Shown one piece after another: positions 5,899 through 47,045 of a stretch of 64,000 nt of DNA. The notes beneath the pieces were generated by a model. That model was not told the origin of the DNA, ran no database searches, and saw only the letters and a list, made by a program, of their open reading frames with translations. This stretch comes from Candidatus Woesearchaeota archaeon (lineage in GTDB: Archaea > Nanobdellota > Nanobdellia > Woesearchaeales > ARS49). The DNA is taken from assembly GCA_038850615.1 (NCBI GenBank), contig JAWCLR010000003.1, positions 1,506 through 65,505 on the forward strand, in the 5' to 3' direction. How positions within the stretch are numbered: the stretch's first letter is position 1; each line of letters opens with the position of its first letter. The translations under genes were made by a program, and so were the position numbers.

Positions 5899-6654
5899 TT
5901 AAACCTTTCTCGCAATCCAGAAAAACAAGACAATCCCCGCGATAAACATAGGGATATTAAGCGCTTGTCCAAGGGTCAGCGGTCCGACAAATGCGGTTGG
6001 CTCGCGGAAATACTCGGCTATGAAGCGGAACACTGAATAAAGCACAAGAAAGAGGGCAAGGAGCGAGCCGTTTGCCATCTTTTTATTCCTCAAGCATAGC
6101 AAGACAAAGAAGATAATCACGTCATAAGCAGCTTCGTACAACTGCGACGGGTGCCTGTAACCCTCTGCACCGGGAAACTTCACAGCCCACGGCACATTTG
6201 TAATCCTCCCAAAAAGCTCGCCGTTGATGAAATTGCCAATCCTTCCAAGCGCCTGTCCAAGGGCAATTGGAACAACACACACGTCGCAGAGGTTTAGGAA
6301 GCGGATTTTCCTGCGCCGCGCAAATAAGTACCCCGCAATAAGTCCGCCAAGAAGCCCGCCGTGAAAACTCAACCCGCCGTGCCATATCGCAATAATCTCG
6401 CCCGGATTGGCGAAATAATACGCCGGCTCCCATACCAAGACCTCAAGCAGGCGCGCGCCAATAATCACTCCCGCAACGAGCCACACCATCAGCCAGTCAA
6501 CATCATCCTGCGTCAGATTTATCATCCCTGTGCGCACAGAACGCCTCACATAAAAATAAACAAAAAGGAAGCTTAATGCCCACATCACGCCATACCATCT
6601 CACCTGCAACGGACCAAGCTCAATCAGGACGGGGTTAATCGCGTGCTCAAACAT
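5899..6654 (-). CDS. lgt: Prolipoprotein diacylglyceryl transferase (bacterial Lgt family)
   Basis: LGPLQVRWYGVMWALSF, HGGLSFHGGLLGG, GRIGNFINGELFG, HPSQLYEA; polytopic membrane protein of 251 aa. Confidence 0.85.
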   Translation of the reverse strand: MFEHAINPVLIELGPLQVRWYGVMWALSFLFVYFYVRRSVRTGMINLTQDDVDWLMVWLVAGVIIGARLLEVLVWEPAYYFANPGEIIAIWHGGLSFHGGLLGGLIAGYLFARRRKIRFLNLCDVCVVPIALGQALGRIGNFINGELFGRITNVPWAVKFPGAEGYRHPSQLYEAAYDVIIFFVLLCLRNKKMANGSLLALFLVLYSVFRFIAEYFREPTAFVGPLTLGQALNIPMFIAGIVLFFWIARKV

Positions 6655-7973: not shown

Positions 7974-8405
7974 TCAGGAAAGGTCTGTGAACTCGCCGTA
8001 AGGGCTTATCAGCTTCCAGCCGTTGTCCTTCAGCCTGAGCGTAAGGGTCTGGTTTGACAGCAAAAACCTGCCATCAAGAGTTTCAACCTCAACGGCTGCT
8101 GAAACCGTTGACTGGCTTCCTGTGTTTGACTGCTCTGAGGCAAAAACCAGCCTTATGCTCTTAGCGCTCTTGTAAAACCCGTTCAGGTATTTTGCAAAGC
8201 TTTCTTCTGTGTGCGCAGTTGGCTCAACTGCCTTCCAGCCGTCAGACACGAGAGTGTACATCGTCTTGTAGTCCTTGGCGCCCCATGCGGCATAATACTT
8301 CTGCACAATCTCAACAGGGGTGCCTTCAACAAAAGGCGTCGGCTCCCTTGGCGCGCATGCAGCCAAGAGGGCAAGCAAAAGCAAAACTGCAATGATTTTT
8401 TTCAT
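7974..8405 (-). CDS. Putative lipoprotein, NTF2/SnoaL-like fold
   Basis: MKKIIAVLLLLALLAAC (lipobox LAAC), then VEIVQKYYAAWGAKDYKTMYTLV. Confidence 0.55.
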   Translation of the reverse strand: MKKIIAVLLLLALLAACAPREPTPFVEGTPVEIVQKYYAAWGAKDYKTMYTLVSDGWKAVEPTAHTEESFAKYLNGFYKSAKSIRLVFASEQSNTGSQSTVSAAVEVETLDGRFLLSNQTLTLRLKDNGWKLISPYGEFTDLS

Positions 8406-23054: not shown

Positions 23055-23666
23055 TTACTGCCTTTCGTATGAGTAGCCAGTCATCTGCTTCTCGCCAAGA
23101 ATTGGGGAAGGCATATAGTACGCCTGCTTTGTAATCTTGCCAATAAGCACAGTATCACCAGAAGGCCTTGGGTCCTTGTCATCCCGGGGCTCTCGCGTAA
23201 CAACAACAAAGTCAAACGGGTCAAAATACTTCTGCATACTGAATTGCATGCTTCCAACACCGCCTCCAATAGTATCAAACACACCAAGGCTCAAATAATA
23301 TCCTGATTCAGGGTCATAAAGCCACGCCTGATACATGCTGTTGTCATAATCAGAAGGCCTCAAGTCCTTAACCTTAAGCAGGATATTGCCCAGAGGAACA
23401 TACGGGCTGCGCTGGCTCTGGATCCTCGCAGTGCCGCGCGGATAGTAATGCGGCTGCCCTGTTGCGAAAACAGGCGGCTCTGGTGGCTCAAGATAAACCC
23501 ATGTGTCCTGCTTGAATGTCTGGACGCGCGGGTCGTAAAAGTACTCATTAAACCTCTGAACCCCGCCCTCGCGGAACTTGATGTCCTCTGGCTTGATATA
23601 AACATAGCCTATCACAAAAGGGGCCAACAGCAGGAATGCGATTCCGATGGCAACAAGCTTCCTCAC
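23055..23666 (-). CDS. Secreted protein with an RskA-like (anti-sigma-K C-terminal) domain, paralogue 1
   Basis: N-terminal signal/anchor, then ...YQAWLYDPESGYYLSLGVFDT...FDFVVVTREPRDDKDPRPSGDTVLIG. Confidence 0.5.
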   Translation of the reverse strand: MRKLVAIGIAFLLLAPFVIGYVYIKPEDIKFREGGVQRFNEYFYDPRVQTFKQDTWVYLEPPEPPVFATGQPHYYPRGTARIQSQRSPYVPLGNILLKVKDLRPSDYDNSMYQAWLYDPESGYYLSLGVFDTIGGGVGSMQFSMQKYFDPFDFVVVTREPRDDKDPRPSGDTVLIGKITKQAYYMPSPILGEKQMTGYSYERQ

Positions 23667-24397
23667 GGCAGCCTCACCCCTTCTTTAAGCAGGCCTGACA
23701 AAATCACCTGGCCTGGCATCGGGTTGTCATCAGGGAAAGGCTCTATAGTGACCATCATTGAGTCAAAAGGCCAGAGAGGGACTACAGATTTATAATCAAG
23801 CGATGCCACCCTGCCGATGTTCGCGGGCTGGAAAAGCCCAAGACTCATTGAGTATCCTGTATCCTCATCCACAAGCCACAGTTCATAAAGAAACTCAGGG
23901 GCCAATGGTGGCAAATCCTTTGTCCTGAAAAAGACGGTTGCCAGAGGGAATCCGACGCCGTTGTCCTTTATGTTCACCACGCGGGCATACCCCTTTGGTG
24001 TGCCGTTGATTTGGGGTCGTGAAACAAGCCCAAGCCCAACAGGCTCAAGCTCAACGTATTTGTTGACAATGTGATACCCCCGCGCGCTCGCGTAATAATT
24101 GCTTATCGCGGAAGGGTCGCTTCCGCGCGGTATGAAGTCGTTATAAGGCAGGTTTGAGGCGCCCTCTTCCTCACCCTTCATTCCAAAACTGCCCCTGCTT
24201 GCAGCCTTTGCGCCATAACCGCCATAAGGCTTGACATAATTCATCCAATATCTGTTTGACGAAAATACAATATCCCTTGGCACAATCGTTGATTGGTACC
24301 ACGAATACCGCGTCTCAGCAGTGTAGCCTGTCTGGGTGGCAATAACCACTGCGCTCATCACGAGAAGGATAACAATGCCCAAAACAAGCTTCTGCAT
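23663..24397 (-). CDS. Secreted protein with an RskA-like domain, paralogue 2
   Basis: ...LYELWLVDEDTGYSMSLGLFQP...FDSMMVTIEPFPDDNPMPGQVILSG. Overlaps paralogue 1 by 4 nt. Confidence 0.5.
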   Translation of the reverse strand: MQKLVLGIVILLVMSAVVIATQTGYTAETRYSWYQSTIVPRDIVFSSNRYWMNYVKPYGGYGAKAASRGSFGMKGEEEGASNLPYNDFIPRGSDPSAISNYYASARGYHIVNKYVELEPVGLGLVSRPQINGTPKGYARVVNIKDNGVGFPLATVFFRTKDLPPLAPEFLYELWLVDEDTGYSMSLGLFQPANIGRVASLDYKSVVPLWPFDSMMVTIEPFPDDNPMPGQVILSGLLKEGVRLP

Positions 24398-24969: not shown

Positions 24970-25941
24970 TTAAATCCTTGCCCAAGGCATTGGCTTCTCC
25001 CGATTTACCACACCCGGGAAAAAGTTCTGGCCAGTGCACCTTCCTGCAATGCACGCGCAAGAACCGCCACAGTCCAAGGTCCCAGGCATGCATTCCATCG
25101 TGCACATTATCCTGCTGCAATCAGGCGCCTTTTCCTTAATCACGCAGTCAGCAGCATGGCAGCACTGCGCCTTTACACAGTCAGAATCCTCATCACACTC
25201 CGGAGGGAAAAGCTCTGGAAGAACACCCACTGTTGCAGGCATGGAAACAAGACTGCCGAGGGTAAAAGTCACGTTGTAAGTTCCTGGCTTTTCATACCTG
25301 TGAATTGCTGAGTATCTTGTTGGAACCTCTGCTTCAGGAAACCAAGGAACACAGCTTGGTGACAAAAATTCATCTTTGCCATCACCAAAACTCCACTTCA
25401 TAGGGACGCAGTAAAACCTTGCATCATTTGGTTCTGCATTCCTCAGAATTGCAGTAAGGTTAACAAGCAAGGGCGCCTCGCCAATCCGCGGGTTTGTCAT
25501 AACTTCTATTGAGGGACCAACAGGCAGGGGCGTTTCAAGCTTCACAATCACGCACCTGTTCTCAACACACTTGACACCCCTGTCGCCTGCGATGCCCGTA
25601 CAAAAATCAGGACAATCTCTTTCCTTGTCAACAAAAACATCATAATACTTCCTGTTGCCAACAAAGCACTGCCCTGTCCTTGGGTCAAAGCCGTCGCAAA
25701 TGCAGTCATCGTCAGCCTCGCAATAATCACTCCCTCTTTCAGGGCACGGTGCGAATTCACAATTGGGACCGACTCTTCCAACAACACTGCCGTCAGGACA
25801 GATTTTTGCCTCCTCTGTGCATGCACCAGGCTTCCGAAGCACCCCTTTAGGAGGAACAACAGCGCACGAACTTAAAAAAACAAATAAAAAAAGAAAAACA
25901 AGAAACTTATTCAATCTCAAACACCACCTGCACGCTTGCAC
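24970..25941 (-). CDS. Cys-rich secreted putative lipoprotein with a PKD-like domain
   Basis: FLFLFVFLSSC (lipobox LSSC), many Cys residues, and WSFGDGKDEF...HRYEKPGTYNVTFTL (PKD signature). Confidence 0.6.
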   Translation of the reverse strand: MQACRWCLRLNKFLVFLFLFVFLSSCAVVPPKGVLRKPGACTEEAKICPDGSVVGRVGPNCEFAPCPERGSDYCEADDDCICDGFDPRTGQCFVGNRKYYDVFVDKERDCPDFCTGIAGDRGVKCVENRCVIVKLETPLPVGPSIEVMTNPRIGEAPLLVNLTAILRNAEPNDARFYCVPMKWSFGDGKDEFLSPSCVPWFPEAEVPTRYSAIHRYEKPGTYNVTFTLGSLVSMPATVGVLPELFPPECDEDSDCVKAQCCHAADCVIKEKAPDCSRIMCTMECMPGTLDCGGSCACIAGRCTGQNFFPGVVNREKPMPWARI

Positions 25942-26632
25942 TCACGTCAAGCTCCTGAGGCATAATCGGCGGAGGAACTGCAGAATCCTTTGCAGCCATA
26001 ACCTCTGCCCCTGCGCGCATTATCGGGTACGCATAATACTCATTGATGCTCACGCTCACAACCTTTCCAAGACGCTTGCCAATGCCGTCAGCCAAAGCCT
26101 CTGCCTTGCTCTTTGCGTCCTGAACAGCGCGCTTCAGTGCCTCATTCTTAGCGTCCTTCTCAGCAACCTTGCTCAATTCAAAACTGATGCTGTTAACGCT
26201 TGTTGCGCCAGCATCAATGCCAACCTGTATGTAAGTGCCGACCTTCTTTATGTCATTAGTAGTTATTTTCAGCGAGTGGGATGCCTTGTAGCCAGCCTCA
26301 ACCTGGCGCTGCTTCTCATAATCCCAGTAAGTGTAGGGATAAACATTGTAATACGTCGTTTCCATGTCGCGCGAATCAAGCCCTGCACGCAATAACGCAT
26401 TCTGTACCGCGTCCATTATCCTGCTGTTCTTGTCCTGGGCCTCCTTTGCAGTCGTGCCATTTGTCTCAACCTGCAAATAAACAGTTGCCTGGTCAGGAAC
26501 TGCCTTGAACTGGCTTGAACCAGTTACAGTAATAACATCTTGCCTTTCTGTCGGCTGCTGCACCGTAATTGTGCACGCAGACAAAAGCAGTACTGCCAAA
26601 ACCATTCCGAAAATCATTGATAGTTTGTTCAT
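25907..26632 (-). CDS. SIMPL/DUF541-family putative lipoprotein
   Basis: MVLAVLLLSAC (lipobox), then ITVTGSSQFKAVPDQATVYLQVETNGTTAKEAQDKNSRIMDAVQNAL... Confidence 0.7.
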   Translation of the reverse strand: MNKLSMIFGMVLAVLLLSACTITVQQPTERQDVITVTGSSQFKAVPDQATVYLQVETNGTTAKEAQDKNSRIMDAVQNALLRAGLDSRDMETTYYNVYPYTYWDYEKQRQVEAGYKASHSLKITTNDIKKVGTYIQVGIDAGATSVNSISFELSKVAEKDAKNEALKRAVQDAKSKAEALADGIGKRLGKVVSVSINEYYAYPIMRAGAEVMAAKDSAVPPPIMPQELDVSASVQVVFEIE

Positions 26633-27268: not shown

Positions 27269-27706
27269 TTATCTGAAAAACATTTCTTTCTCAGCGCGTT
27301 CCCTAAGCCGGTCCTTGTAGCTATGCGAATTGAAATACTCGCACATCGCCCTTAATTTTGCGCGCAATGGAGCAGGCATTTCACAAAACTCAATTCCTGC
27401 GTAAATCCTGCCCTCTTTCGGGTTCTCAAAACACCTGCGCACAACACCCTCCAAAGGAATCACTTCATCATACTTTTGAATTGTCAGCGCCAAACGCACT
27501 TTTGTCTTGACCTTTATTCGTTCAGCAACATTAATGCATACTCCTCCAACTGACAAGTCAACAACAGAAGCCTCACGCTCATTCAAACGCCTAAGAAAAG
27601 GAAAATACGAAAGCAAGCCTGTGCTGTACACAACACTTGCTTCTTCAGGCTTGCACCGTTCATACCTGCGCCTGTCAGGAACAACAACAGTCTGGTCAAT
27701 GCTCAT
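27269..27706 (-). CDS. PilZ-domain protein
   Basis: DRRRYER (RRxxxR) and VVDLSVGGV (DxSxxG), spaced as in c-di-GMP-binding PilZ domains. Confidence 0.65.
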   Translation of the reverse strand: MSIDQTVVVPDRRRYERCKPEEASVVYSTGLLSYFPFLRRLNEREASVVDLSVGGVCINVAERIKVKTKVRLALTIQKYDEVIPLEGVVRRCFENPKEGRIYAGIEFCEMPAPLRAKLRAMCEYFNSHSYKDRLRERAEKEMFFR

Positions 27707-28333: not shown

Positions 28334-30061
28334 TCAGAACAATTCATTGCACAATTCTATAAACATTGCCGAGCTCCATGCCTGCGAGACGCAACCGTGG
28401 CTTGACAACGCCCGTGCCGAGCTCAGTTCTGCGTGGTGACCTATTGCGCCAAGCTCAAGGATTTCGTGCGAGCTTGCCTCAACAATTTGCTCAATGAAAT
28501 GCTTGTACTTTGCTGCATTCGTCCTGTACAAAACAAGCGCAGCTAGGTTATTTAGCCAGAACCAGCTGTCTCCGCGGTGATAGCTCACATTGTCCTGGCC
28601 CGTATAATGGTCCGTGAATAATTCATGATTAATATCAATGCTTGAAATTCCACCCCACCGAAGCCAGAGCCGAGGCAAAACAGTATCAAAGCATTTTTCC
28701 CATTGCTCCCTTGACAATAATTCAGGATAAGCATAAGCAGCAATGAAAACATTAGGCCTTATCGTCGGATCGTTAAGCCCGTCGTGCAGCACGCTGCCGT
28801 CCCAGAAAGTGTCGCGGACACGCTGGACAAGGTCTTTTTCAAACTCATTTTCGCCAAGCGCAGAGGCAAGAGCAAGAGTCAATGCCTGGATTTCAATGCG
28901 CGCGCCATCCCGCACATCCTTACCATCAACGGAAGTGTCCATCCACGTCTCAAGAGGACCATTCATAACAAGACCATTCTGCATCCTTGCCTTAAGCGCA
29001 TTCAAGGCATTGCGCAGTTTTTTCTCTGCCTCTGACTGCTCCCTTTTCGAGAATAAATCCCTGCTTTGCGAATACCTCAAGCCAACCCAGCCAGGACCGT
29101 CAGCAGCGCAAAGACCGTAATCAGCAAAGGCATACGGCAAATGCCTGCCAGCAAATGAACCTACATGTCTCTTCAGGATGTTTTTCACCAGCTTTTTCCT
29201 GCCAAGCAGCTTCAATGCGTTGCAACTTACTGCCTCATCACGAAGCCAAAACTGGTAAAACCAAGGAACGCCTGCATAAAGCCCCTCATCGCCAACAGCC
29301 AACGAGTCAAGCGCATTACAGGCGCACTGGTAAGCCAAAGAGATTTTTTTGGGCATCGGCGCCCTCGGCTGCGAAATTGCTGACACAGCCTTCATCTGCC
29401 TGTGGATAAGGAGCATGCGCGAATTCAGCACGCGCCTTGCTTCTGCAACAGCCTCTTTTTTTGTGCGGGCGGCGGCAATCACAAAGCGCTGCGCGTTGAT
29501 TGTGCCTGCATTGTAGACCCATCGTGAATACGGTGGGCTCTTCCTCTGCTCATCAAATGAGTAATGCTGCTCAACCCATTTCGCCAACGGAACAAAGCCA
29601 AGGTTGTTTCCTGCAATGGCAACAAACAAGTCATACTCAACATTACATTTGCTGTTGTCATCGCGGTTATCATTCCGTTTTTGGAATTTTATGACAATGC
29701 ACCCTTTTTCCTGGCTTACCACTTCGTAATTCCTCCCCCACTCGCGGTTGTCATCTATCATTTTGCAGTCAAGTAGGATGTCTGCACTTGCAGACGAAGA
29801 AAACTCAACAATCAAGGCATTCCTGCCGTAAGGCATTGTCAGGCGCTGGTTTACTGACGCGTAATCGCGCTGGACACCCCAAAGCATGTTTGTCAGACTG
29901 TGCAGGGGCTCGCCAACGTAAATGTCCGCAACAGTCTTGAAAACAGAACCCCCTATCCTGAAAAACAAACCCTGATACCTTGATTCGGGACGTGTTCCGA
30001 GCCAGGCAAAGCCGCCGCGCCTGTTTGCCAGCAATGCGCTTGCAGATTCCTCCATTGTCAC
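28334..30061 (-). CDS. Amylo-alpha-1,6-glucosidase / glycogen-debranching-type six-hairpin glycosidase
   Basis: 575 aa with ...VPWFYQFWLRDEAVS... and ...YHRGDSWFWLNN..., as in the GDE C-terminal family. Confidence 0.7.
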   Translation of the reverse strand: MTMEESASALLANRRGGFAWLGTRPESRYQGLFFRIGGSVFKTVADIYVGEPLHSLTNMLWGVQRDYASVNQRLTMPYGRNALIVEFSSSASADILLDCKMIDDNREWGRNYEVVSQEKGCIVIKFQKRNDNRDDNSKCNVEYDLFVAIAGNNLGFVPLAKWVEQHYSFDEQRKSPPYSRWVYNAGTINAQRFVIAAARTKKEAVAEARRVLNSRMLLIHRQMKAVSAISQPRAPMPKKISLAYQCACNALDSLAVGDEGLYAGVPWFYQFWLRDEAVSCNALKLLGRKKLVKNILKRHVGSFAGRHLPYAFADYGLCAADGPGWVGLRYSQSRDLFSKREQSEAEKKLRNALNALKARMQNGLVMNGPLETWMDTSVDGKDVRDGARIEIQALTLALASALGENEFEKDLVQRVRDTFWDGSVLHDGLNDPTIRPNVFIAAYAYPELLSREQWEKCFDTVLPRLWLRWGGISSIDINHELFTDHYTGQDNVSYHRGDSWFWLNNLAALVLYRTNAAKYKHFIEQIVEASSHEILELGAIGHHAELSSARALSSHGCVSQAWSSAMFIELCNELF

Positions 30062-30996
30062 TGCTCTCCGCGATAGAATTTTGCAGCAAGCTCAGGCAAG
30101 ACGGAGTTTATGACCGCTCCTGAGCCGCGCTCAAACCCCCCGTAAACCGCAATCTGCGGCATAACGCTGATGTGTAAATGCAAATCCTCGCCCGGAGGCG
30201 AATACGTCAGGTAAAAATTGTAGTCAACATTTAGTGTTGCTAGACGCGAAAGAACGCTCCTCAGCATATCGGCAAGCCCCTGCAGATCAGCATCAGCAAG
30301 CGCGCCAATGTGCTGTTTTGGAAAAATCCAAACTTCATAATTGTACATTGACGCATAAGGGCAGAATGCAAGCCAGCCGTCATTTTCAAAACATTTTCGC
30401 TCGCTGTTTTTCTCGATGGCAACAATACCGCAATAAGGGCAACTGATGAACCTTCTGACTGCAACAACCTTTTCCCTTACTGCAGGAGGAACAAATGCTG
30501 TTGCAAAAACCTGGGTATGCGTGTGGACAAGGGATGTCCCGCCGTGGTAGCCGTGGTTCTTTATTATGCTGACATACTTTATTTTCGGCTTTTTCAGCAA
30601 AGCCTCGATTCTTTCCCGATAAACCCCAAGGACTGCTGCAATCTCTCCTGCGCTCAAGTCAGAGAGCTGCCTGGAATGGTCGGGTGTTTCGACAATTATT
30701 TCATGATATCCGTAATTGCCTGCAAAAGTGAAAAACCTGTTGTCCGTGCGCGGTTCTGCCTGCCCTTCTGGGACAAGAGCAGGGAACTTGTTTTCAAACC
30801 AGCGGACCTGCCATTTGTTCTTTGTGCCTAGCCTCCCTATTTCAGGAGGAGTCATATACTCATTGCCGGGACAGAAACAGCACTTATCGTTTGCCACTTT
30901 CTCTGTTGCGTGCCTGAATTCCCTTGGCCTTGCACTACGGCCTGCGGAATAAACAACCCACTTATCAAGAATGTAATCCTTGCGAAGCTCCCCCAC
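30058..30996 (-). CDS. galT: Galactose-1-phosphate uridylyltransferase
   Basis: ELRKDYILDKWVV, CCFCPGNE, HGGTSLVHTHTQV (HxHxQ). Start assigned to a GTG preceded by AAGGTGA; the ORF-track start at 31113 adds an implausible N-terminal extension. Confidence 0.75.
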   Translation of the reverse strand: MGELRKDYILDKWVVYSAGRSARPREFRHATEKVANDKCCFCPGNEYMTPPEIGRLGTKNKWQVRWFENKFPALVPEGQAEPRTDNRFFTFAGNYGYHEIIVETPDHSRQLSDLSAGEIAAVLGVYRERIEALLKKPKIKYVSIIKNHGYHGGTSLVHTHTQVFATAFVPPAVREKVVAVRRFISCPYCGIVAIEKNSERKCFENDGWLAFCPYASMYNYEVWIFPKQHIGALADADLQGLADMLRSVLSRLATLNVDYNFYLTYSPPGEDLHLHISVMPQIAVYGGFERGSGAVINSVLPELAAKFYRGEQ

Positions 30997-31128
30997 ATCA
31001 TTCACCTTTTCGTACAGGTCCAGTGATAACCTGCTATATAAGCATTTCCCTACACCCCCAACAGAAAGATATTTATAGTCCCAGTATACACAAAGGTATA
31101 TTGAAATCAGCAAAAAAGGTGATAACCA

Positions 31129-31446
31129 ATGGTTGAGGTTGAAGAAGGAAAGGGAGTAGCATTAGTCATTCTTGGCATAGTTGCAGTAATCGCTGTCGTG
31201 GGTCTTGTACTGCTTTTCAGCAAGGCAAGCACAACAGGTAAATACGTTGAAGCAGGGACATTCGTACAATTTGAGCCTAAAGAGGCGTGTGAGCGCGCGG
31301 GATGCATACTGAAAGGCATTGAAGGCGGAATAAACTACGCCTCACAAGGACCGCTTATGGCAGTCTGCGATTGTATGGGCCGCGAAATGGTCACACCAAT
31401 AGTCAGGCCATTTGACTGGCGCGAAGAATACTATCCAGCAGGATAA
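31129..31446 (+). CDS. Small signal-anchored CX4C...CXC protein, array member 1
   Basis: GVALVILGIVAVIAVVGLVLLF-SKASTTG-...ACERAGC...VCDC; AAGGTGAT ribosome-binding site. Confidence 0.7.
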   Translation: MVEVEEGKGVALVILGIVAVIAVVGLVLLFSKASTTGKYVEAGTFVQFEPKEACERAGCILKGIEGGINYASQGPLMAVCDCMGREMVTPIVRPFDWREEYYPAG

Positions 31447-31452
31447 ATAAGA

Positions 31453-31557
31453 ATGCAGAGAAACAGAATAGGCCTCGTAGTACTGGCAATCGTAGGAATA
31501 ATGGGCCTTGTTGCACTCGTGCTTTTGTCAAAGCACGCGCAGATAGCCCTTAAGTAA
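31453..31557 (+). CDS. 34-aa peptide carrying only the family's N-terminal helix, array member 2 (truncated)
   Basis: MQRNRIGLVVLAIVGIMGLVALVLLSKHAQIALK; below the ORF-track size cut-off. Confidence 0.35.
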   Translation: MQRNRIGLVVLAIVGIMGLVALVLLSKHAQIALK

Positions 31558-31574
31558 AAAAGAGGTGAATGATT

Positions 31575-31949
31575 ATGGCAGGAGGCAAGGAAATTGCTCT
31601 GGCAATCCTGGGCATCGTTGTAATAATTGCCGTTGTCGGAATGATTCTCCTATTCAAGGGAGGCACAGGACAAGCGACATATAGCTATGCGAAGCCCTTC
31701 ACAATGATAGCACCCACTGCTGAAAAGGCATGTAGCATTCTTGACTGCCAGAATGGCGTTGGCGCAGTTGTTATTGGGGAAGAAACCCGCCTTGACGGCG
31801 AATATTGGGTTTGCGGATGCCCTACGCAGTTCAAGGACCAAAGAATAACAGACTGGTCAAACCAGTGGAAAGGCGACAAGGCCCGTGACGGCCTTGATTT
31901 TGGCAATTACGAGTTTATCTGGCGCGTGCGCAAGATAAGGGAGTACTGA
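31575..31949 (+). CDS. Small signal-anchored CX4C...CXC protein, array member 3
   Basis: MAGGKEIALAILGIVVIIAVVGMILLF-KGGTGQ-...ACSILDC...VCGC; GAGGTGA lies 7 nt upstream of this ATG. Confidence 0.7.
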   Translation: MAGGKEIALAILGIVVIIAVVGMILLFKGGTGQATYSYAKPFTMIAPTAEKACSILDCQNGVGAVVIGEETRLDGEYWVCGCPTQFKDQRITDWSNQWKGDKARDGLDFGNYEFIWRVRKIREY

Positions 31950-32272
31950 TGGAAACCGAACAAAACGACTCACTCGGGCTCAAGCTTGTGAGCCTAGGCT
32001 TTGTGGCAATCATTGCCATTGCAGGGCTTGTGATATTGTTCACGCAGACGTCTGTCACTGGAAACCTTGCCGGAATGCAAAAACTCGGCACAGCAGGAGT
32101 GATTGAGCGCACGCCGTACGAGGCGTGCAGAAGCGTCAGGATACAAGGGCAACAGTTTGTCTGGAGCGGTTTTGTGGACCCGTGGAACCAATTGGCAGAA
32201 TGCGTTGATCCGCTTGACCCAACAAACCCGAACCGGGTATTTTACGCAGAGCTAAAGCTTGCATACGGGTGA
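31949..32272 (+). CDS. Small signal-anchored protein, array member 4 (retains 2 of the 4 Cys)
   Basis: LKLVSLGFVAIIAIAGLVILF-TQTSVTG-...EACRSVRI...AECVD. Confidence 0.65.
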   Translation: METEQNDSLGLKLVSLGFVAIIAIAGLVILFTQTSVTGNLAGMQKLGTAGVIERTPYEACRSVRIQGQQFVWSGFVDPWNQLAECVDPLDPTNPNRVFYAELKLAYG

Positions 32273-32275
32273 AAG

Positions 32276-32611
32276 ATGGAAGAAAAAACAACAGCCATAA
32301 CGGTCCTTGCAATTGTCGCGGTTATTGCGGTATGCGGCTGCGTGCTGCTTTACAAAAGCTTAACAACCCTTGCGGTATATGAGCAGCCCGCAAACAATAA
32401 GCCACCATTCTTATTGACAAGCTCGTACATGAAGGACTTTGACCTCTGCCGACAGTTCCTCTGCGGATACTACACTCCAGGATATTACGGCGAAAGCGAG
32501 CCCGCAACTGTTGTTGGATACGAAGTAATAACAAACAACCTTGTCTGCAGGTGCCCTGATGGAAGGACATTTCAGGTAAGACCTGACAGGATTGAAGTGG
32601 AGACGTACTAA
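32276..32611 (+). CDS. Small signal-anchored CX4C...CXC protein, array member 5
   Basis: ITVLAIVAVIAVCGCVLLY...LCRQFLC...VCRC. Confidence 0.7.
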   Translation: MEEKTTAITVLAIVAVIAVCGCVLLYKSLTTLAVYEQPANNKPPFLLTSSYMKDFDLCRQFLCGYYTPGYYGESEPATVVGYEVITNNLVCRCPDGRTFQVRPDRIEVETY

Positions 32612-32877
32612 TGAACGAAAGGTTTGGCTTCGCACTGGTCTTGATTGTTGCAGCAGCGTCTGTAGCCAGCATGCTGTTTCTCGCAGGCGCAAGCACGACA
32701 GGCTATGTGGCAAGCAAGCAACTGCTCTCATACGGCCGCACCGTTGATTTTGGCACGGATGAATGCAGGCACGTTTTGTGCCCTGCGCACGCGCCAGCAA
32801 CACCGCTGGTTGACCAGTACGGCAGGATCGTCTATCAGGACAATGGAAGACCAGTATGCCTATGCCCGCTGAGGTAA
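32611..32877 (+). CDS. Small signal-anchored CX4C...CXC protein, array member 6
   Basis: FALVLIVAAASVASMLFLAG-ASTTG-...ECRHVLC...VCLC. Confidence 0.7.
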   Translation: MNERFGFALVLIVAAASVASMLFLAGASTTGYVASKQLLSYGRTVDFGTDECRHVLCPAHAPATPLVDQYGRIVYQDNGRPVCLCPLR

Positions 32878-32880
32878 GCC

Positions 32881-33147
32881 ATGCCGAATTTCAAGATAGA
32901 CTCTGAATTTGCCCTCGCCCTGCTCGGCATTTTCGCAGTCATCCTGATCGTTACAATAATACTTTTCATCAGCCGCCAACTCGGAATACAGACATACAGT
33001 GTGCTTAAGGTCGGAACGCCCTGCCACAAAATTTATTGCGGCAATGAACGGCTTCCAGCCAAGGAAATAGGCAGGGACTGGGAGCGCGGCATAGTTTACT
33101 GCCAGTGCAGGGACGGCCCAATAAGGCAGGAAAGGCTGTTTTCGTAA
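32881..33147 (+). CDS. Small signal-anchored CX4C...CXC protein, array member 7
   Basis: FALALLGIFAVILIVTIILF...PCHKIYC...YCQC. Confidence 0.7.
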   Translation: MPNFKIDSEFALALLGIFAVILIVTIILFISRQLGIQTYSVLKVGTPCHKIYCGNERLPAKEIGRDWERGIVYCQCRDGPIRQERLFS

Positions 33148-33158
33148 AAACAATTCTG

Positions 33159-34691
33159 TCAGCCTATTGATGCATAGAGCGCTCTAAAGCATTCTGTGTA
33201 TTCCTCATCATGCAGCTTTTCGCATTCCTTGCGCTTCAAATCAAACTCATTACTTCTCAGGCAGTCGTCGCGGTAGCCTCCTTCAAGTATATCGCATGCT
33301 TGTTCTGCCAAGTCAATCCTGCCATTGCTAAAGAAATTTGGCCGCACGCCTGCAATGCACAACTCGGGTTGCCATGCCTGCCTGCATAATTCTATCGCGA
33401 TTGCATCGTTTCGCTTTGCTATGTTTTCTGCCACTTGAATCAGACACCTGTCCTTCGTGCTACTTGCTCCGCCCAAAATATTGCATATTTCAAGGGCGCG
33501 CCCAGTATCTTCCACCTGATTCGATACCCCGACATAACACATATTTTTCCCGTCCAAAACCCATTCGTTATCTGAAGGAATAGCATCACAAAAAGCCAGC
33601 GCGTCATCAATCTTGCCTTTCCTTGCGAAAACATATCCTGCGCGTTCAAAGCAGCTTCTCGGGAATGGCAGAAGTTCACCATTCACTATTTCAGGCGGAC
33701 AGTTCTTCTGCAATTTCTCTATCAAACTGGCTGTGCTTTGACCACTTTCAAAAATCACGTATGCAATATCTGCCAGGCACAAAACAGCATCATCAGACAC
33801 CTTACAGGCCTCTAGTGCAACATCAGGATTGCTGGCCGATATTGCTTCTGCAACTCTTTGCACACACTCCCCATACGAACTGCTCTGATTTTCAAACGAT
33901 TCTGAACACAACCGCAAGGCTCTCTGATGGTCCCACATTGAGATTTTTTCAGCTACTTGTATCCTGCACAACCAGTCCTCGACTGGCACAGCATCACATT
34001 CTGCAATAACAGCTTGCAGTTCAGCCTCTGTTGTTTTTGGCGACAATTCTATTTTTGACAGCACATCTTTTGCCCGCAGGTGCTTTGGCTGAGGTTCTTG
34101 CATTCCACCAAACATTGCATTTAAAGCAAACCCATAAATAACGCCAAAAATAATGAACGCTATGAAAGAAAGTAACACAATCCATCCAAAAACCATCCAT
34201 GCACTGGTGGAATGCAGTTCCGCAAGTATCTTAACATAACTGATCATAAGCCACACAATTACAACCGTAAAAAGCAAAAATAGAATCGTTCCGAAAATTA
34301 CCAGTATCCACACCGATGTCAAAAATCCAATTCCTACAAAAAGCAAATAAAGAAGGCTGAGTATGCCGTAAATTGGCAGCGAATACGCCGAATAAGCAAA
34401 GTTGACCTGAAATACTTCGCCCCAAGTGACATGTTTGGTTTTGAATGGAGCATTAATTATCAAGATAAACAGGAAAGGTGAAATAACAGACAATGCCACG
34501 ATCGCGAGTGTAACCATGCCCATTTTGCCAAAAAAAGAAACCAAAATCTGAGGCAATAATAACAACAGGTTAACTCCAACAACAATAAGCGCATACGCCC
34601 ACCACGGCCAGCCATCAGTTAACTTGTCATTTGCAAAATCGGCTGGGTGAAAAAACAGATTTTTGTAATGCTCAAAAACCTCCATAGGCAT
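33159..34691 (-). CDS. Polytopic (Yip1-like) membrane protein with about 8 C-terminal Cys-pair repeats
   Basis: The N-terminal ~200 aa contain about 5 transmembrane helices. The C-terminal ~300 aa repeat the pattern A(L/I)xxC...xC(L/I)xxVAExI, e.g. ALEICNILGGASSTKDRCLIQVAENIA. Confidence 0.6.
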   Translation of the reverse strand: MPMEVFEHYKNLFFHPADFANDKLTDGWPWWAYALIVVGVNLLLLLPQILVSFFGKMGMVTLAIVALSVISPFLFILIINAPFKTKHVTWGEVFQVNFAYSAYSLPIYGILSLLYLLFVGIGFLTSVWILVIFGTILFLLFTVVIVWLMISYVKILAELHSTSAWMVFGWIVLLSFIAFIIFGVIYGFALNAMFGGMQEPQPKHLRAKDVLSKIELSPKTTEAELQAVIAECDAVPVEDWLCRIQVAEKISMWDHQRALRLCSESFENQSSSYGECVQRVAEAISASNPDVALEACKVSDDAVLCLADIAYVIFESGQSTASLIEKLQKNCPPEIVNGELLPFPRSCFERAGYVFARKGKIDDALAFCDAIPSDNEWVLDGKNMCYVGVSNQVEDTGRALEICNILGGASSTKDRCLIQVAENIAKRNDAIAIELCRQAWQPELCIAGVRPNFFSNGRIDLAEQACDILEGGYRDDCLRSNEFDLKRKECEKLHDEEYTECFRALYASIG

Positions 34692-34820: not shown

Positions 34821-35471
34821 ATGCACGATGCACTGCCTAAGCAGATAAGGGAAGTCCTTGCAAAGCTGAACATTACAGAATTCCGTCCTGCCCAGATAAA
34901 AGCAATTGATGCAGGGCTGCTGGAGGGCAGAAATTTGCTTGTGTGCACGCCGACAGCATCAGGAAAGACGCTCATTGCGGAAATGGCTGCCGGCAAGTCC
35001 ATCCTCGAAGGAAAGGGAAAAACAGTCTATATTGTGCCGCTTGTTGCCCTTGCAAACGAAAAGGCAAAGGACTTCAAGAAGAGGTATGGGCATTTGTTCA
35101 AGGTCGCGCTTTCTGTCGGAGACTTTGACTCGTCAGACCCGCACCTGATGGACTATGACTTAATCATCTGCACTGCTGAAAAGCTAGACTCTTTAATAAG
35201 ACACCAAGCGCCCTGGCTCAAATTCGTCAGCGTTGTAATAGTCGATGAAGTGCATTTGCTCAATGATGTCTCAAGAGGACCAACGCTTGAAATCCTGATA
35301 ACGCTGCTGAAGAAAATACTGCCCAAAGCACAGATTATTGCCTTGTCTGCAACAATCGGCAATCCTGAAGAGCTTGCAAAATGGCTTGACGCAAATCTTG
35401 TGAAGGATGACTGGCGCCCTGTGCCACTGCATAAGGGTGTTTATTTTGACAACACAATAGAATTTGAGTAA
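34821..35471 (+). CDS. Hel308/Ski2-like helicase, N-terminal RecA1 fragment only (truncated)
   Basis: FRPAQ (Q motif), TPTASGKT (I), DEVH (II), SAT (III). The ORF stops 216 aa in, just after ...DWRPVPLHKGVYF. Confidence 0.65.
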   Translation: MHDALPKQIREVLAKLNITEFRPAQIKAIDAGLLEGRNLLVCTPTASGKTLIAEMAAGKSILEGKGKTVYIVPLVALANEKAKDFKKRYGHLFKVALSVGDFDSSDPHLMDYDLIICTAEKLDSLIRHQAPWLKFVSVVIVDEVHLLNDVSRGPTLEILITLLKKILPKAQIIALSATIGNPEELAKWLDANLVKDDWRPVPLHKGVYFDNTIEFE

Positions 35472-35510: not shown

Positions 35511-35927
35511 GTGTTATTCATGTTTAAGGCACTTGAAAACGCGTATGAATTCGCCGCTCTGCCATTGCGCATTGGCTTGGCTGCCTTGTTCCTAACGGCA
35601 GGGGTCCTCAATGTTATGAACTTTGCAGGCGCAACAGACAATATGGCAAGCCTTGGCCTTCCTGTGCCAATAGTGTTTGCAATAATAATGCTTGTTTCTC
35701 AGCTTATTGGCGGAACCCTGATACTACTTGGCCTGCTGACACGAGTGGCTGCAATCTGGATGACCATAGTTCTGTTATTCCTCGTGATAATGGCTCACGT
35801 TGTGCATTACACCCCTGACAGCCTTATTGAAATAACAAAGTACGTTGCCTGGATTGGCGGAACGCTCTGCCTGATGCTATTAGGACCAGGAAAATTGAGC
35901 CTGGATGAAGCATTTTTGTGGGAATAA
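35511..35927 (+). CDS. DoxX-family membrane protein
   Basis: LPLRIGLAALFLTAGVLNV... and four transmembrane helices in 138 aa. Confidence 0.65.
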   Translation: MLFMFKALENAYEFAALPLRIGLAALFLTAGVLNVMNFAGATDNMASLGLPVPIVFAIIMLVSQLIGGTLILLGLLTRVAAIWMTIVLLFLVIMAHVVHYTPDSLIEITKYVAWIGGTLCLMLLGPGKLSLDEAFLWE

Positions 35928-35938
35928 AAATAAAAAAA

Positions 35939-36262
35939 TCAACCTAACAATGACCTTACGACTTCTGCACTCGCGCAGTAGCCGACGCCATTGTAGTTTA
36001 TTCTTGCTGCGGTGTACGGGCTGAAATCAGGACCGTATTTCTCGCGGCCAGCCTGCCTCAATGCCTCAATACCCTCCGCGCTCAGCAAGACTTCTCCTGC
36101 ATTGCAACCCGCAATAGTCTGGTCGCTGATTCCAGGCCTCATTGCCAGCCCTGTAGTGCTTGTTTCATTGAACATCAGCAAAAGCCCTGCAAAACCAATA
36201 ACCGCGACAAGCACAACTGCGAGTAAGTGTTTTCCGCAGTGGCTCTCCTTGGTCTGCTCCAT
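35939..36262 (-). CDS. Small signal-anchored protein, dispersed member of the STTG family
   Basis: LLAVVLVAVIGFAGLLLMF-NETSTTG-...GCNAG...YCAS. Confidence 0.6.
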   Translation of the reverse strand: MEQTKESHCGKHLLAVVLVAVIGFAGLLLMFNETSTTGLAMRPGISDQTIAGCNAGEVLLSAEGIEALRQAGREKYGPDFSPYTAARINYNGVGYCASAEVVRSLLG

Positions 36263-36280: not shown

Positions 36281-36616
36281 TTACAATTTCAGCATTTCAC
36301 CATACTTGCCAATAATCGGCAACGGCTTTTCCTTGCCAGTGAGGGCATTAATGACCCCAAAAAGCCATAGTACAAACAGCAGGATTCCTCCAATTGGCAG
36401 GATGATAAACCAGCCAAGGAGGGGTATAACAATCCCCACCAAATAAAGGACAACCCATGCAACAAACAAAACAAGACTTTGCTTTGCATGATACATTGCA
36501 AACTTGTCATCCTTCTTTGCAAGCAGGACAATAATAAAGCCCACAATGTTCAGCAGGTATGCCAAGAAGGCAAACAATTTGCTTTCACCGGACACTTCTT
36601 TTGCCAAAATAATCAC
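36281..36616 (-). CDS. DUF4870-like small membrane protein
   Basis: AFLAYLLNIVGFIIVLLAKKDDKFAMYHAKQSLVLFVAW... Confidence 0.55.
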   Translation of the reverse strand: MIILAKEVSGESKLFAFLAYLLNIVGFIIVLLAKKDDKFAMYHAKQSLVLFVAWVVLYLVGIVIPLLGWFIILPIGGILLFVLWLFGVINALTGKEKPLPIIGKYGEMLKL

Positions 36617-36660: not shown

Positions 36661-37944
36661 CTAAAGCCCGATGCTTGCAATGAGCTTGTCCTTGTCAAAA
36701 GCCTGCAGGTCAGCATATTCTTGCCCAACGCCAAGATAGAGAATTGGCTTCTTGGTAACATAACTGACTGATATTGCTGCACCGCCCTTCTCATCAACAT
36801 CTGCCTTTGCAAGAATAATTCCATCAATCCCAATGGCATTGTCAAACTGTCTTGCCTGTTCAATGCAGTCATTACCAGTAATGCTCTCGCCGACAAACAA
36901 TTTTAGGTCGGGCTTTGCAACCCTCATTATCTTCTTCATTTCATCCATCAGGTTTGTGTTTGAGTGCAGTCTTCCTGCGGTGTCAATCAGGACAACATCC
37001 TTCTTGGTGGCTTCTGCGTGCTTGATTGCATCAAAGGCAACAGCCGCAGGGTCAGAACCGTAATCATGCCTTATCAGCTTGACCCCGAGCTTGTCAGCAT
37101 GCAATTGCAACTGGTCAATTGCTGCAGCACGGAATGTGTCAGCAGCAGCAAGCACAACAGAATAACCGTTCTGCTTGAGCAAATGCGCAACTTTCGCTAT
37201 TGAAGTCGTCTTTCCAGAGCCATTCACTCCGACAAAGCATATCACGAAAGGCTTTTTCTTTCCCACCATCTTCAGGAGGTCAGGCGGCTCAACAGGAAAC
37301 AAGTCAGAAATGCTCCTCCTCAATGAACTTACTATTGTGTCCTCAACCCTGCCTCTTGGAATTGGCTTTTCAACAAGCTCTGACTTCAAATCAGACTTTA
37401 TCTTTTCAATGACCTCAACCGCGGCATTGTTCTCAAGCAATGCGAGCTCCATTTCCCAGAACATTTCATCAAACTGCTTTTCGCTGATTTTTTTTGTTGT
37501 TATTGCTTCCTTGATTCTTGCAAAAAAGCCCTTTTTTTCCTCAACAACCTTTTCCTCCTCGACTTTCGGGACAGAAACTTCAGCTTTTTTCTCTTCAACC
37601 TTTGGCTTTTCAACCTCTGCTTTCAGGACTTCTGCTTTTCTCTCCTCAATCCTCGGCTTTTCAGGCATTACTTTTGGTTCTGCAACTTCAACCTTGGGAG
37701 CAACTTCCGGTTTTTTCTCGCCTGCTTTCGGCTTCTTTGCCTTTGATTCTGGCTTCTTCTCAACAACCTTTGGCTTTTCTTCCTTGATAGGCTTCTTTGC
37801 AGGCTTCTCAGCCTTCTTCACCTCCTTGACATGCTTCTTTGCTTCTTTCTCTATCTCAACAATCTCTTCCTTTGCCTCTGTTTCAACCTTTTTAGTGAAT
37901 TTTGAAACAAGGCTCTTAAGCTTGTCCTTCAAGAATCCAAACAT
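36661..37944 (-). CDS. ftsY: Signal recognition particle receptor FtsY
   Basis: Lys/Glu-rich N-terminal domain, then GVNGSGKTTSIAK, DTFRAAAIDQL, DTAGRLH, LAKADVDEKGG. Ends in TAG. Confidence 0.9.
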   Translation of the reverse strand: MFGFLKDKLKSLVSKFTKKVETEAKEEIVEIEKEAKKHVKEVKKAEKPAKKPIKEEKPKVVEKKPESKAKKPKAGEKKPEVAPKVEVAEPKVMPEKPRIEERKAEVLKAEVEKPKVEEKKAEVSVPKVEEEKVVEEKKGFFARIKEAITTKKISEKQFDEMFWEMELALLENNAAVEVIEKIKSDLKSELVEKPIPRGRVEDTIVSSLRRSISDLFPVEPPDLLKMVGKKKPFVICFVGVNGSGKTTSIAKVAHLLKQNGYSVVLAAADTFRAAAIDQLQLHADKLGVKLIRHDYGSDPAAVAFDAIKHAEATKKDVVLIDTAGRLHSNTNLMDEMKKIMRVAKPDLKLFVGESITGNDCIEQARQFDNAIGIDGIILAKADVDEKGGAAISVSYVTKKPILYLGVGQEYADLQAFDKDKLIASIGL

Positions 37945-40345: not shown

Positions 40346-40457
40346 GGCCCTTTAGCTCAGTCCGGTAGAGCAACGGTCTTATATGACCGCTGACGGAACA
40401 AGAAGTCAATGGCTCTAAGAGCACCGTCGGTCGCCGGTTCAAATCCGGCAGGGGCCA
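40346..40457 (+). tRNA. tRNA-Ile(TAT) with a 38-nt intron at 37/38
   Basis: Acceptor GGCCCTT/AGGGGCC, D-arm GCTCAGTCCGGTAGAGC, anticodon stem ACGGT...ACCGT, loop CTTATA|intron|C, T-arm GCCGGTTCAAATCCGGC. The spliced length is 74 nt. Confidence 0.7.
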
Positions 40458-40513
40458 CTTTTATTTTTTTGTGCGATACCTTTTTAAAACAGCCAAGTTC
40501 TTATTGGCATATT

Positions 40514-40607
40514 GCCCCTGTCGTCTAGTCCGGCCAAGGATAAGGGCCTTTCGTGCGGCAAAACGCAAGGAAAGCCTTTGACACGGGTTCAAATCCCGTC
40601 GGGGGCA
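40514..40607 (+). tRNA. tRNA-Glu(TTC) with a 19-nt intron at 37/38
   Basis: The body is near-identical to tRNA-Glu(CTC). Anticodon stem AGGGC...GCCTT, loop CTTTCG|intron|A. Confidence 0.85.
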
Positions 40608-40734
40608 TATGATTGTCCGCGAAGAATTGCTTGGCTACTACACCAAAAGCAAAGCAGAAATCCAAAAAGCAATTGCAAGATACCGCGAACTGAAGGCATT
40701 ATTTGAATAGTATAATGACAAGGAACTTCTTGAA

Positions 40735-41629: not shown

Positions 41630-41916
41630 ACCTACTAAATCCTAATTAGCATCAACGCCAAGCGCCGGTAAATCATTCCGGCAAGCTTTCTGTCCTCGGG
41701 AAAACTGAGGATGCCTACCAAAAACACGGTAGGAATGAGTGTCTCAGCTGAGCCTGAGGCATGATGGAGGGCAGCAATAGAACCCAAAAGCCAAATTCCA
41801 TTTTAGTCTGATGCGACCACAAATGTGGGAAGGGTTAACGACGAGGCTCCATTGATTCGTCAATGGTCATATCGTCTTGACATAACTTTCCTCAGGAGAA
41901 AACTCCGACATCACAG

Positions 41917-43382
<1,466 letters not shown>

Positions 43383-43606: not shown

Positions 43607-43699
43607 GGGCCCGTAGCTCAACGGTAGAGCACCTGCCTTGCAGGAAACAAATGTTTCCAGGAGCGCGGGAGGCTTCGGGTTCAAATCCCGACGGGTCCA
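43607..43699 (+). tRNA. tRNA-Ala(TGC) with a 21-nt intron, in the 16S-23S spacer
   Basis: GGGCCCG/CGGGTCC acceptor with G3:U70, anticodon stem CCTGC...GCGGG, loop CTTGCA|intron|C. Confidence 0.85.
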
Positions 43700-43924
43700 T
43701 CCATCCGAGTATCACATTCATCATTTCATTCGATGAACGCAAATCGCGATTCTAACTAATCGCGGTTGAAGGGCAATAGGCTGTAGGAGCGCATAATGCA
43801 AGACGTAAGACGCACGACGCATAAAAAAAGCGGCCGGCGTCAAGCGCAAGGCGTCCTGCGCGCCCAATAACCACACCTACTACATGCTAATGACGGCCGT
43901 GCAAAGATTGAGATCATATCTGGT

Positions 43925-46835: not shown

Positions 46836-47045
46836 TTAGATGCGATTTCAGTCTTTGCATGGCCATCATTTTTCCTTTTTTTCTTAATTCATTGACTATG
46901 CAGATCCGGAAGTTTCGCAATTCTTCCGCAAAACAATCTATTTTCAGGAATTCTTCCGGCTTAAATGCAAATGTGTTTGGTCAAACCGCAATCGTCACAA
47001 GATTTTCACCAAAATTCACTTTAAGACTGTTGTCTTTTTTTTGCA

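Follow-up and report, generated by a model that had tools for sequence, protein, structure and literature searches.

What is made by a tandem array of small genes whose products share a hydrophobic N-terminal helix and carry divergent cysteine-bearing tails behind it? The question is raised by a 64,000-nucleotide stretch of DNA from Candidatus Woesearchaeota archaeon (assembly GCA_038850615.1, contig JAWCLR010000003.1, positions 1,506 to 65,505), called the window throughout, in which seven such genes, m1–m7, are arranged on the forward strand at positions 31129–33147 and a dispersed eighth, m8, is found on the reverse strand at positions 35939–36262 (Table 1). Few uncultured archaea are as widespread as the Woesearchaeota, and to our knowledge nothing is known of their cell surface. 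All eight proteins follow a shared plan: a short N terminus, a single hydrophobic helix of 21 residues, and, except in the helix-only m2, a small tail, or head, containing cysteines. The array encodes, with what we judge to be an even chance, helix-anchored subunits of a fixed cell-surface assembly.

The seven tandem open reading frames (ORFs) were all confirmed on the forward strand where an initial annotation of the sequence had placed them. The gaps between them measure −1 to 11 nt, and a clear Shine-Dalgarno-like (SD) GGAG or GGTGA is present 5–9 nt upstream of seven of the eight genes, m2 having a weak AGGA only. In a correction to the initial annotation, the true start of m3 is most likely the ATG at 31575, yielding a protein of 124 residues, because the SD spacing is normal there and the orthologues agree. 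Ahead of m1, an A/T-rich, TATA-like element, AAAGGTATATT, is followed by an SD sequence. The block AGTATACA.AAAGGTATATT...AAGGTGAT is kept in the window, L001, L004, and L002 (L001, L002, L004, and so on are labels for loci in related assemblies or metagenome contigs), with a different upstream gene in L002. The TATA-like element is a putative archaeal promoter.

The array is conserved member by member. Orthologues of m1–m8 are found in the same order in L001, L002, L004, and L005, which are independent assemblies or metagenome contigs, and also in L019 and L020; in these relatives, m1–m7 are followed by a 216-residue DEAD-box fragment, DoxX, m8 on the reverse strand, DUF4870, and FtsY. The position of m8 after DoxX is the same in L001, L002, L004, L019, and L020, and the helix-only m2 (31–35 residues in relatives) is kept in place in L001/L009, L002/L003, L004/L005, L019, and L020; annotators had left this gene uncalled in two of the three relatives checked (L001 and L004). 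The orthologues collected number 31 for m1, 20 for m3, 5 for m4, 4 for m5, 10 for m6, 16 for m7, and 13 for m8, and all cysteines are invariant among the collected orthologues of each paralogue: four in the tails of m1, m3, m5, m6, and m7, and two each in m4 and m8. The m1 orthologues are 60–91% identical, with K8, G9, T36, G37, and the four cysteines invariant in an alignment of 32 sequences. The most conserved member is m4, which is 95% identical to its counterpart in L001 and 90% identical to that in L004.

Ratios of nonsynonymous to synonymous substitution rates (dN/dS), calculated by the Nei-Gojobori method between the window and three relatives, are 0.04–0.36 for m1–m8 overall, the range of m2 alone reaching 0.41 (m1, 0.09–0.11; m2, 0.13–0.41; m4, 0.04–0.11; m7, 0.05–0.15; m8, 0.09–0.24) and 0.06–0.18 for GalT, the debranching enzyme (GDE), the DEAD helicase fragment, DoxX, and DUF4870. 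No pseudogenes, repeats, or recombination signals were found in the m-array, and copy number is constant between relatives. The array genes are thus real, old, and under purifying selection, and they are not diversifying, because their dN/dS resembles that of the flanking housekeeping genes and each paralogue has 1:1 orthologues (47–95% identity) in a fixed order. These results contradict the initial annotation, which had considered a diversifying surface or pilin-like family a plausible host-interaction module. A rapidly diversifying surface or pilin-like repertoire for changing hosts would suit the divergence of the paralogue heads (about 25% identical to one another, with the m4 and m8 heads unalignable) and the size of the superfamily, which has at least 13–17 genes per genome. 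Yet the differences between paralogues are ancient, and with so much constraint between species, as in m4, and no changes in copy number or marks of recombination, this explanation is very improbable.

Conservation is of a different kind at the N terminus, where a helix module with the consensus M-A-E-E-G-K-G-[VIL]-A-L-x-I-L-G-I-V-A-V-I-A-V-V-G-L-V-L-L-F extends far beyond the array. Many database matches cover only residues 5–40 of m1, at 70–89% identity, in otherwise unrelated small proteins. A 38-position module profile searched against 1.84 billion cluster representatives matches at least 413 clusters (50% identity) at E ≤ 1e-3 and 124 at E ≤ 1e-10; the module lies at residues 1–37 in nearly all matches, and the proteins listed are 37–348 residues long. 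Among GTDB species-representative genomes, it is present in metagenome-assembled genomes (MAGs) of Woesearchaeota/Nanoarchaeia, with several loci per genome; the labels of module-bearing MAGs also include one Aenigmatarchaeota and some "uncultured Methanosarcinales". A hidden Markov model (HMM) scan of the species-representative loci yields 201 module genes in 73 loci, nearly always in co-oriented tandem arrays of two to seven, and the lower bound of 13–17 genes per genome comes from the three best-sampled genomes. Across the 201 genes, ten helix positions (L13, G14, V16, A17, A20, G23, L24, V25, L26, and F28) are 85–93% identical, and the tails are unalignable. The same module residues are encoded by different codons in m1 and m3, an indication that selection acts on the protein. 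In none of 132 representatives is the module joined to a Pfam domain (E ≤ 0.01), which argues that it is not a general export signal; the Pfam scan of these members gave one marginal AtDEF-like match (E = 0.002). Conservation of the helix far exceeds what a lipid anchor would require, and its invariant positions, the differing codons, the conserved m2, and the absence of Pfam fusions argue that it is functional in itself. The scale and invariance of this N-terminal module across the Woesearchaeales are what is new here.

The family is undescribed and confined to this group of archaea. Pfam and NCBIfam searches with m1–m8 at E ≤ 10 return only transmembrane-segment noise, PDB sequence searches with the module and m1 profiles return only PsbJ (E = 0.05–0.4), and no module relatives were found in viral contigs. 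A profile of the four-Cys head recovers only array orthologues and no module-less relatives, and the closest homologues of the array genes are named "Candidatus Woesearchaeota archaeon". In the literature searched, neither the helix sequence nor a link between Woesearchaeota and such proteins was found. The earlier remark that the family could not be placed is thus borne out by Pfam, NCBIfam, PDB sequences, Foldseek, and the literature, and profile-HMM and structure-prediction searches matched no well-characterised domain. The PsbJ match (best E = 0.05) is non-significant and reflects transmembrane composition only. Small single-pass complex subunits of the PsbJ type nonetheless resemble the array in two respects, a helix-only member of 30–40 residues (m2) and residue-level conservation of the helix, as in buried helices.

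A second type of array is built on the same module. In L007 and L008, and also in L012, L013, L018, L023, and L026, five or six module genes of 130–180 residues, each with its own intergenic region and with four cysteines, carry a K-x-Y-G-G motif 10–20 residues past the helix. A double-glycine leader was considered for this motif and rejected, as leaders of that kind do not form transmembrane helices. Neighbouring paralogues in L007 share near-identical DNA over their first ~100 nt and have unalignable tails, a pattern that suggests gene conversion or concerted evolution of the module.

The location of the heads can be read from their cysteine content. An even number of tail cysteines is found in every one of the 201 genes (73 loci; p = 6e-61), and the same holds for 132 of 137 cluster representatives, whereas a comparison set of 41 soluble ORFs from the window comprises 19 with even and 22 with odd Cys counts. 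By number, eight tails have no cysteine, 35 have two, 142 have four, 14 have six, and one each has eight and ten. No Cys-to-His variation is seen, and the tails are rich in Gly, Tyr, Pro, Thr, and Ser and poor in Lys, Leu, and Ile. Even Cys parity and a composition rich in Gly, Tyr, Pro, and Thr together show that the tails are exported and disulfide-bonded, in agreement with the initial annotation, which had preferred disulfides to a metal site. A zinc-ribbon-like Cys4 site is excluded by the tails with two, six, and ten cysteines, by the complete even parity, and by the lack of a parity bias in the soluble ORFs. Much the same observations bear on an inverted topology, in which the N terminus would be outside and the four cysteines of a cytoplasmic tail would bind metal. 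Four is the commonest count, and the charges flanking the helix (mean −0.39 on the N-terminal and +0.85 on the C-terminal side) favour such an N-out orientation, but it is scarcely credible given a parity that holds at every count, cysteines that never change to His, soluble proteins without this bias, and a tail composition typical of extracellular proteins.

Comparisons of both halves of the proteins support a single family with a signal-anchor-like helix. The N-terminal module profile scores 72 bits with m1, 17 with m2, 54 with m3, 33.5 with m4, and 33 with m5. Tail-only profile comparisons (hhalign) relate m5 to m7 (E = 2.7e-6, probability 88.5%), m1 to m3 (E = 1e-4), and m1 and m5 to m6 (E ~1e-3), and when 58 tails are aligned together, the four Cys columns are filled in 58 of 58; these heads also keep a Gly at the centre and, in many cases, a Pro following CXC. 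The signature originally read as CX4C...CXC holds in the window, but the first motif widens to CX4-5C across the m1 orthologues. The m4 and m8 tails, which had been described as having lost the second Cys of both motifs, do have two invariant cysteines each, but they show no detectable homology to the four-Cys tails (hhalign probability <4%). The local context of the two-Cys heads, P-x-E-A-C and C-x-D-P against C-x-C-P in the four-Cys heads, makes a loss of C2 and C4 from a four-Cys head plausible at the level of sequence.

AlphaFold2 (AF2) models of m1 and m3, built from orthologue alignments and of moderate confidence, indicate how the four cysteines may be paired. The m1 model (predicted local distance difference test score, pLDDT, 74.6) comprises a helix at residues 5–33, a linker at residues 36–41 with pLDDT <50, and a small α+β domain composed of a short strand, a helix at residues 50–56 that contains C54, C59, strands at residues 60–65 and 77–82, the latter with C80 and C82, and then two strands and a short helix. 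The m3 model (pLDDT 68) has a helix at residues 6–31 and the same core. In these four-Cys heads, C1 is placed in the short helix, C2 just past it, C3 in the next strand, and C4 in or just after that strand. Because C3 and C4 are spaced two residues apart along one strand facing C1 and C2 at the helix end, the models suggest a double staple, C1–C3 and C2–C4. Such a staple would be reminiscent, by analogy only, of the predicted helix C1(/C2) to strand C3-x-C4 connection of cysteine-stabilised α/β (CS-αβ) peptides such as defensins and scorpion toxins; two-Cys members may keep C1 and C3, which would fit the Ci–Cj, Ci+4–Cj+2 connectivity. The main differences are that CS-αβ peptides have CX3C, three or four disulfides, and 35–50 residues, whereas the array proteins have CX4-5C, at most two disulfides, and larger, membrane-tethered heads. 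Foldseek searches with the m1 and m3 models find no defensin match, and no PDB match with E <1.

In the fixed assembly proposed here, eight bitopic proteins would be made from an old conserved operon, each with a cytoplasmic N terminus, a single helix, and a small extracellular head. The heads of m1 and m3–m8 would each be held by one or two disulfides, and in the four-Cys members the staple would link the short helix (CX4-5C) to the β-strand (CXC). The near-invariant 21-residue helix would be the functional core, serving as both anchoring and assembly element: it would bring the eight distinct subunits, including the helix-only m2, together in a fixed composition into a surface structure whose exposed face is formed by the divergent heads. 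The N-in/C-out topology, the surface location, and the helix-mediated hetero-assembly are what we infer from these observations. Several points weigh against this proposal. The flank charges oppose the positive-inside rule for an N-in orientation, the small residues past the helix (G-A-x-x-T-G, S-T-T-G) would be compatible with signal peptidase I as well, the AF2 models are only of moderate confidence, part of the module uniformity in L007 reflects gene conversion rather than selection, and hetero-assembly is argued from co-conservation and helix invariance only.

The small residues past the helix bear on the possibility that the array proteins are ordinary Sec substrates, with a long conserved signal peptide cut by signal peptidase I (S-K-A/S, T-T-G/K, and G-Q-A/T, the slash marking the cut) and products that are free, small, disulfide-rich secreted peptides with antimicrobial or signalling roles, comparable to the conotoxin and defensin families. 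Small residues at −3 and −1 are present in most members (G-A-x-x-T-G; S/T-T-G), the small heads with their CX4C...CXC helix–strand staple recall CS-αβ peptides, and the 5′ modules of L007 are near-identical in DNA, as with conserved signal exons. The Sec and lipoprotein signals of this genome, however, consist of MKK followed by a 12–15-residue hydrophobic region, unlike the 21-residue stretch and acidic N-region (mean −0.39) of the module; a signal for signal peptidase I would have a positively charged N-region and some 7–15 hydrophobic residues. Moreover, m2, which is under purifying selection, would be a signal peptide with nothing to export; invariance of residues all around the helix across an order is not needed by a cleaved signal; and the heads do not diversify between orthologues. 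Ordinary secretion is therefore unlikely.

A stronger case can be made for type IV filament subunits, in which a prepilin peptidase would cut the M-A-E-E-G-K-G leader behind its final Gly, the machinery would be encoded elsewhere in the genome, the helix would form the filament core, and the array would be a fixed pilin set resembling GspG-K and minor-pilin operons, with m2 head-less like Flp or EpdE. The proteins do resemble archaeal class III/type IV pilins in having, in many members, a short leader ending in K/R-G, directly followed by ~21 hydrophobic residues, an N terminus far more conserved than the heads, a pilin hallmark, ordered tandem paralogues with 1:1 orthologues and a helix-only member, and exported heads; in addition, no enzyme or binding protein carries the module as a fusion. 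K-G precedes the helix in 32 of 32 m1 sequences, where the 21-residue hydrophobic stretch, helical in AF2, begins directly after it, and K/R-G does so in 20 of 21 aligned m3 sequences; of the 201 superfamily genes, 93% have K/R at −2 and 70% have Gly at −1, the other 30% having Ser, Asn, Thr, or another residue.

The suggestion in the initial annotation of class III, pilin-like precursors remains tentative: the K/R-G motif is present in m1 and most m3 orthologues, but Gly−1 is dispensable. Window m3 has K-E before the helix, L002 m3 read from the upstream start has H-K-I, and m5, m7, and m8 have neither Gly nor Ala there (m7 lacks the Gly among its orthologues as well); m2, m4, and m6 have Gly without K/R at −2. 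In further differences from archaeal pilins, the leader carries a net negative charge, in the AF2 models the helix runs into a flexible linker rather than into a head packed on it in a pilin "lollipop", Foldseek finds no pilin, the disulfide-stapled heads are unusual in archaeal pilins outside hyperthermophiles, and mature m2 would have 27 residues, shorter than any known pilin. No match to PF07790 (Pilin_N), PF04021 (Class_IIIsignal), or the NCBIfam archaeal flagellin N-terminal-like model was obtained with m1–m8 (E ≤ 10) or the 132 representatives (E ≤ 0.01), a weak test, as canonical MKKGQIT... proteins of the same lineage fail it too.

Operons such as GspG-H-I-J-K, FimU-PilVWXE, and ComGC-GG offer a further comparison, as they also encode, in a fixed order, five to seven small paralogues with their own orthologues, a shared helix, and differing heads, and bacterial pilin heads often have a C-terminal disulfide to which the stapled heads may be likened. 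Those operons differ in adjoining secretion or pilus machinery and in having an invariant Gly−1, usually Glu+5, and heads packed on the helix, and the array proteins show no sequence or fold similarity to bacterial pseudopilins or minor pilins. As first noted, no pilus ATPase or platform gene is nearby: Pfam scans of 30 window ORFs show no assembly ATPase, platform, or peptidase (two window ORFs of at least 400 residues lie outside these scans and look like a P-type ATPase and a transketolase by their N termini alone), and neither G.TGSGK[ST]T (secretion-ATPase Walker) nor G.GD.K (A24 peptidase) motifs occur in the window or in 885 kb around 83 loci.

Proteins of 715–728 residues with class-III-looking N termini, MK[KR]GQ[IV]T[IV]FIIIG..., are encoded ~2 kb from module arrays at five loci and have no confident Pfam match. 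Such N termini in the lineage mean that a processing enzyme probably exists. Some type IV filament systems occur in DPANN archaea (10.64898/2026.04.22.720090), and the cognate pilins of one pilus-ATPase clade, also present in nanoarchaea, have never been identified (PMC4858521); both observations favour filament subunits. With these points on either side, a type IV filament is possible but doubtful. The superfamily may, tentatively, represent subunits of an unrecognised Woesearchaeales filament or surface lattice, conceivably the "missing" DPANN type IV pilins. In that case, the operon would encode an ordered set of distinct subunits, with the helix-only member as a core subunit, and disulfide-stapled heads would replace the immunoglobulin-like heads of known archaeal pilins.

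The array is surrounded by metabolic and housekeeping genes (Table 1). In every relative examined, DoxX separates the array from m8; the idea that it oxidises the thiols of the heads was set aside, DoxX being syntenic only with this array type and having no conserved CxxC, and it remains a speculative lead. The other array types in relatives adjoin LspA, glycogen synthase, iPGM, and enolase. LspA (Peptidase_A8) is found beside arrays more often than any other gene (34 of 73 loci), but a lipobox Cys is missing from the module, and LspA was rejected as a processing enzyme; its proximity is read as shared synteny with those genes rather than as a functional link. The window, whose rRNA genes are archaeal, encodes elements of a bacterial-type lipoprotein pathway, Lgt and four lipobox-like ORFs (LAGC, LAAC, LSSC, LSAC). 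A gene for a PilZ-domain protein is kept a short distance upstream of the array in L001, L002, and L004, and a GGDEF protein adjoins a module gene in L006.

Other features are listed as observations in their own right. The stand-alone DEAD/ResIII protein corresponds to the RecA1 half of a Hel308/Ski2-like helicase; because its length is constant and it is 81–93% identical in relatives, the gene is a helicase gene conserved in split or truncated form rather than a pseudogene. The 510-residue orphan, which separates m7 from the DEAD gene in this genome alone, combines a multi-pass N-terminal half with an 18-Cys C-terminal half containing a repeated C-x2-4-[QR]-[VI]-A-E, and has no Pfam match. 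Between m8 and DUF4870, L001, L002, and L004 encode a multi-pass membrane protein of 121–125 residues that the window lacks. Two adjacent secreted or anchored proteins give weak RskA_C matches, and in one of them a transmembrane helix precedes T-Q-T-G, a motif resembling the S/T-T-G of the array, though the module profile does not detect this protein. Three over-long tRNA genes of 93–112 nt, one of which is in the 16S–23S spacer, probably contain introns; ARAGORN leaves one of them without an assigned anticodon.

Table 1. Positions of the array genes, their neighbours, and related features in the window and in loci of relatives
Feature	Locus	Position	Strand	Description
m1	Window	31129-31446	+	105 residues; MVEVEEGKG, helix 10-30, S-T-T-G linker, four-Cys head (C54, C59, C80, C82)
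m2	Window	31453-31557	+	34 residues; helix-only micro-protein MQRNRIG-LVVLAIVGIMGLVALVLL-SKHAQIALK
m3	Window	31569-31949	+	126 residues; helix, G-T-G linker, four-Cys head (C55, C60, C82, C84), conserved C-terminal extension
m4	Window	31949-32272	+	107 residues; helix, T-Q-T-S-V-T-G, two-Cys head
m5	Window	32276-32611	+	111 residues; helix, linker, four-Cys head (LCRQFLC...VCRCPDG)
m6	Window	32611-32877	+	88 residues; helix, A-S-T-T-G, four-Cys head (ECRHVLC...VCLCP)
m7	Window	32881-33147	+	88 residues; helix, four-Cys head (PCHKIYC...YCQCRDG)
m8	Window	35939-36262	-	107 residues; dispersed member; helix, N-E-T-S-T-T-G, two-Cys head
Conserved upstream element	Window	31092-31123	+	TATA-like AAAGGTATATT (31092-31102) and SD GGTGAT (31118-31123)
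GDE_C	Window	28334-30061	-	Debranching enzyme
GalT	Window	30058-31113	-	
Cys-rich multi-pass orphan	Window	33159-34691	-	510 residues; absent at this position in relatives
DEAD-box fragment	Window	34821-35471	+	216 residues
DoxX/MauE-family membrane protein	Window	35511-35927	+	Pfam PF07681, 7e-14
DUF4870	Window	36281-36616	-	
FtsY	Window	36661-37944	-	
16S rRNA	Window	41916-43382		
23S rRNA	Window	43919-46840		
Lgt	Window	5899-6654	-	PF01790, E 2e-76
Lipobox-like ORF	Window	5539-5871	-	
Lipobox-like ORF	Window	7974-8405	-	
Lipobox-like ORF	Window	24970-25941	-	
Lipobox-like ORF	Window	25907-26632	-	
PilZ-domain protein	Window	27269-27706	-	PF07238, E 2e-11
Secreted/anchored protein	Window	23663-24397	-	Weak RskA_C match; T-Q-T-G after helix
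Secreted/anchored protein	Window	23055-23666	-	Weak RskA_C match
Over-long tRNA gene	Window	40346-40457		
Over-long tRNA gene	Window	40513-40608		
Over-long tRNA gene	Window	43607-43699		
Multi-pass membrane ORF	L001	9076-9453	-	Between m8 and DUF4870
Multi-pass membrane ORF	L002	9521-9886	-	Between m8 and DUF4870
Multi-pass membrane ORF	L004	9486-9863	-	Between m8 and DUF4870
Second array type	L007	10001-13243		
Second array type	L008	9416-12984		
Class-III-looking protein	L060	9316-11481		
Class-III-looking protein	L070	8917-11067		
Class-III-looking protein	L071	3807-5954		
Class-III-looking protein	L075	8589-10751		
Class-III-looking protein	L082	8709-10895		

What the array means for these archaea depends on the nature of its helix. 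Should it be a class III signal, the family would close a gap to which the 2016 census of archaeal pili drew attention; if it is not, the array would represent a new kind of helix-mediated surface assembly.

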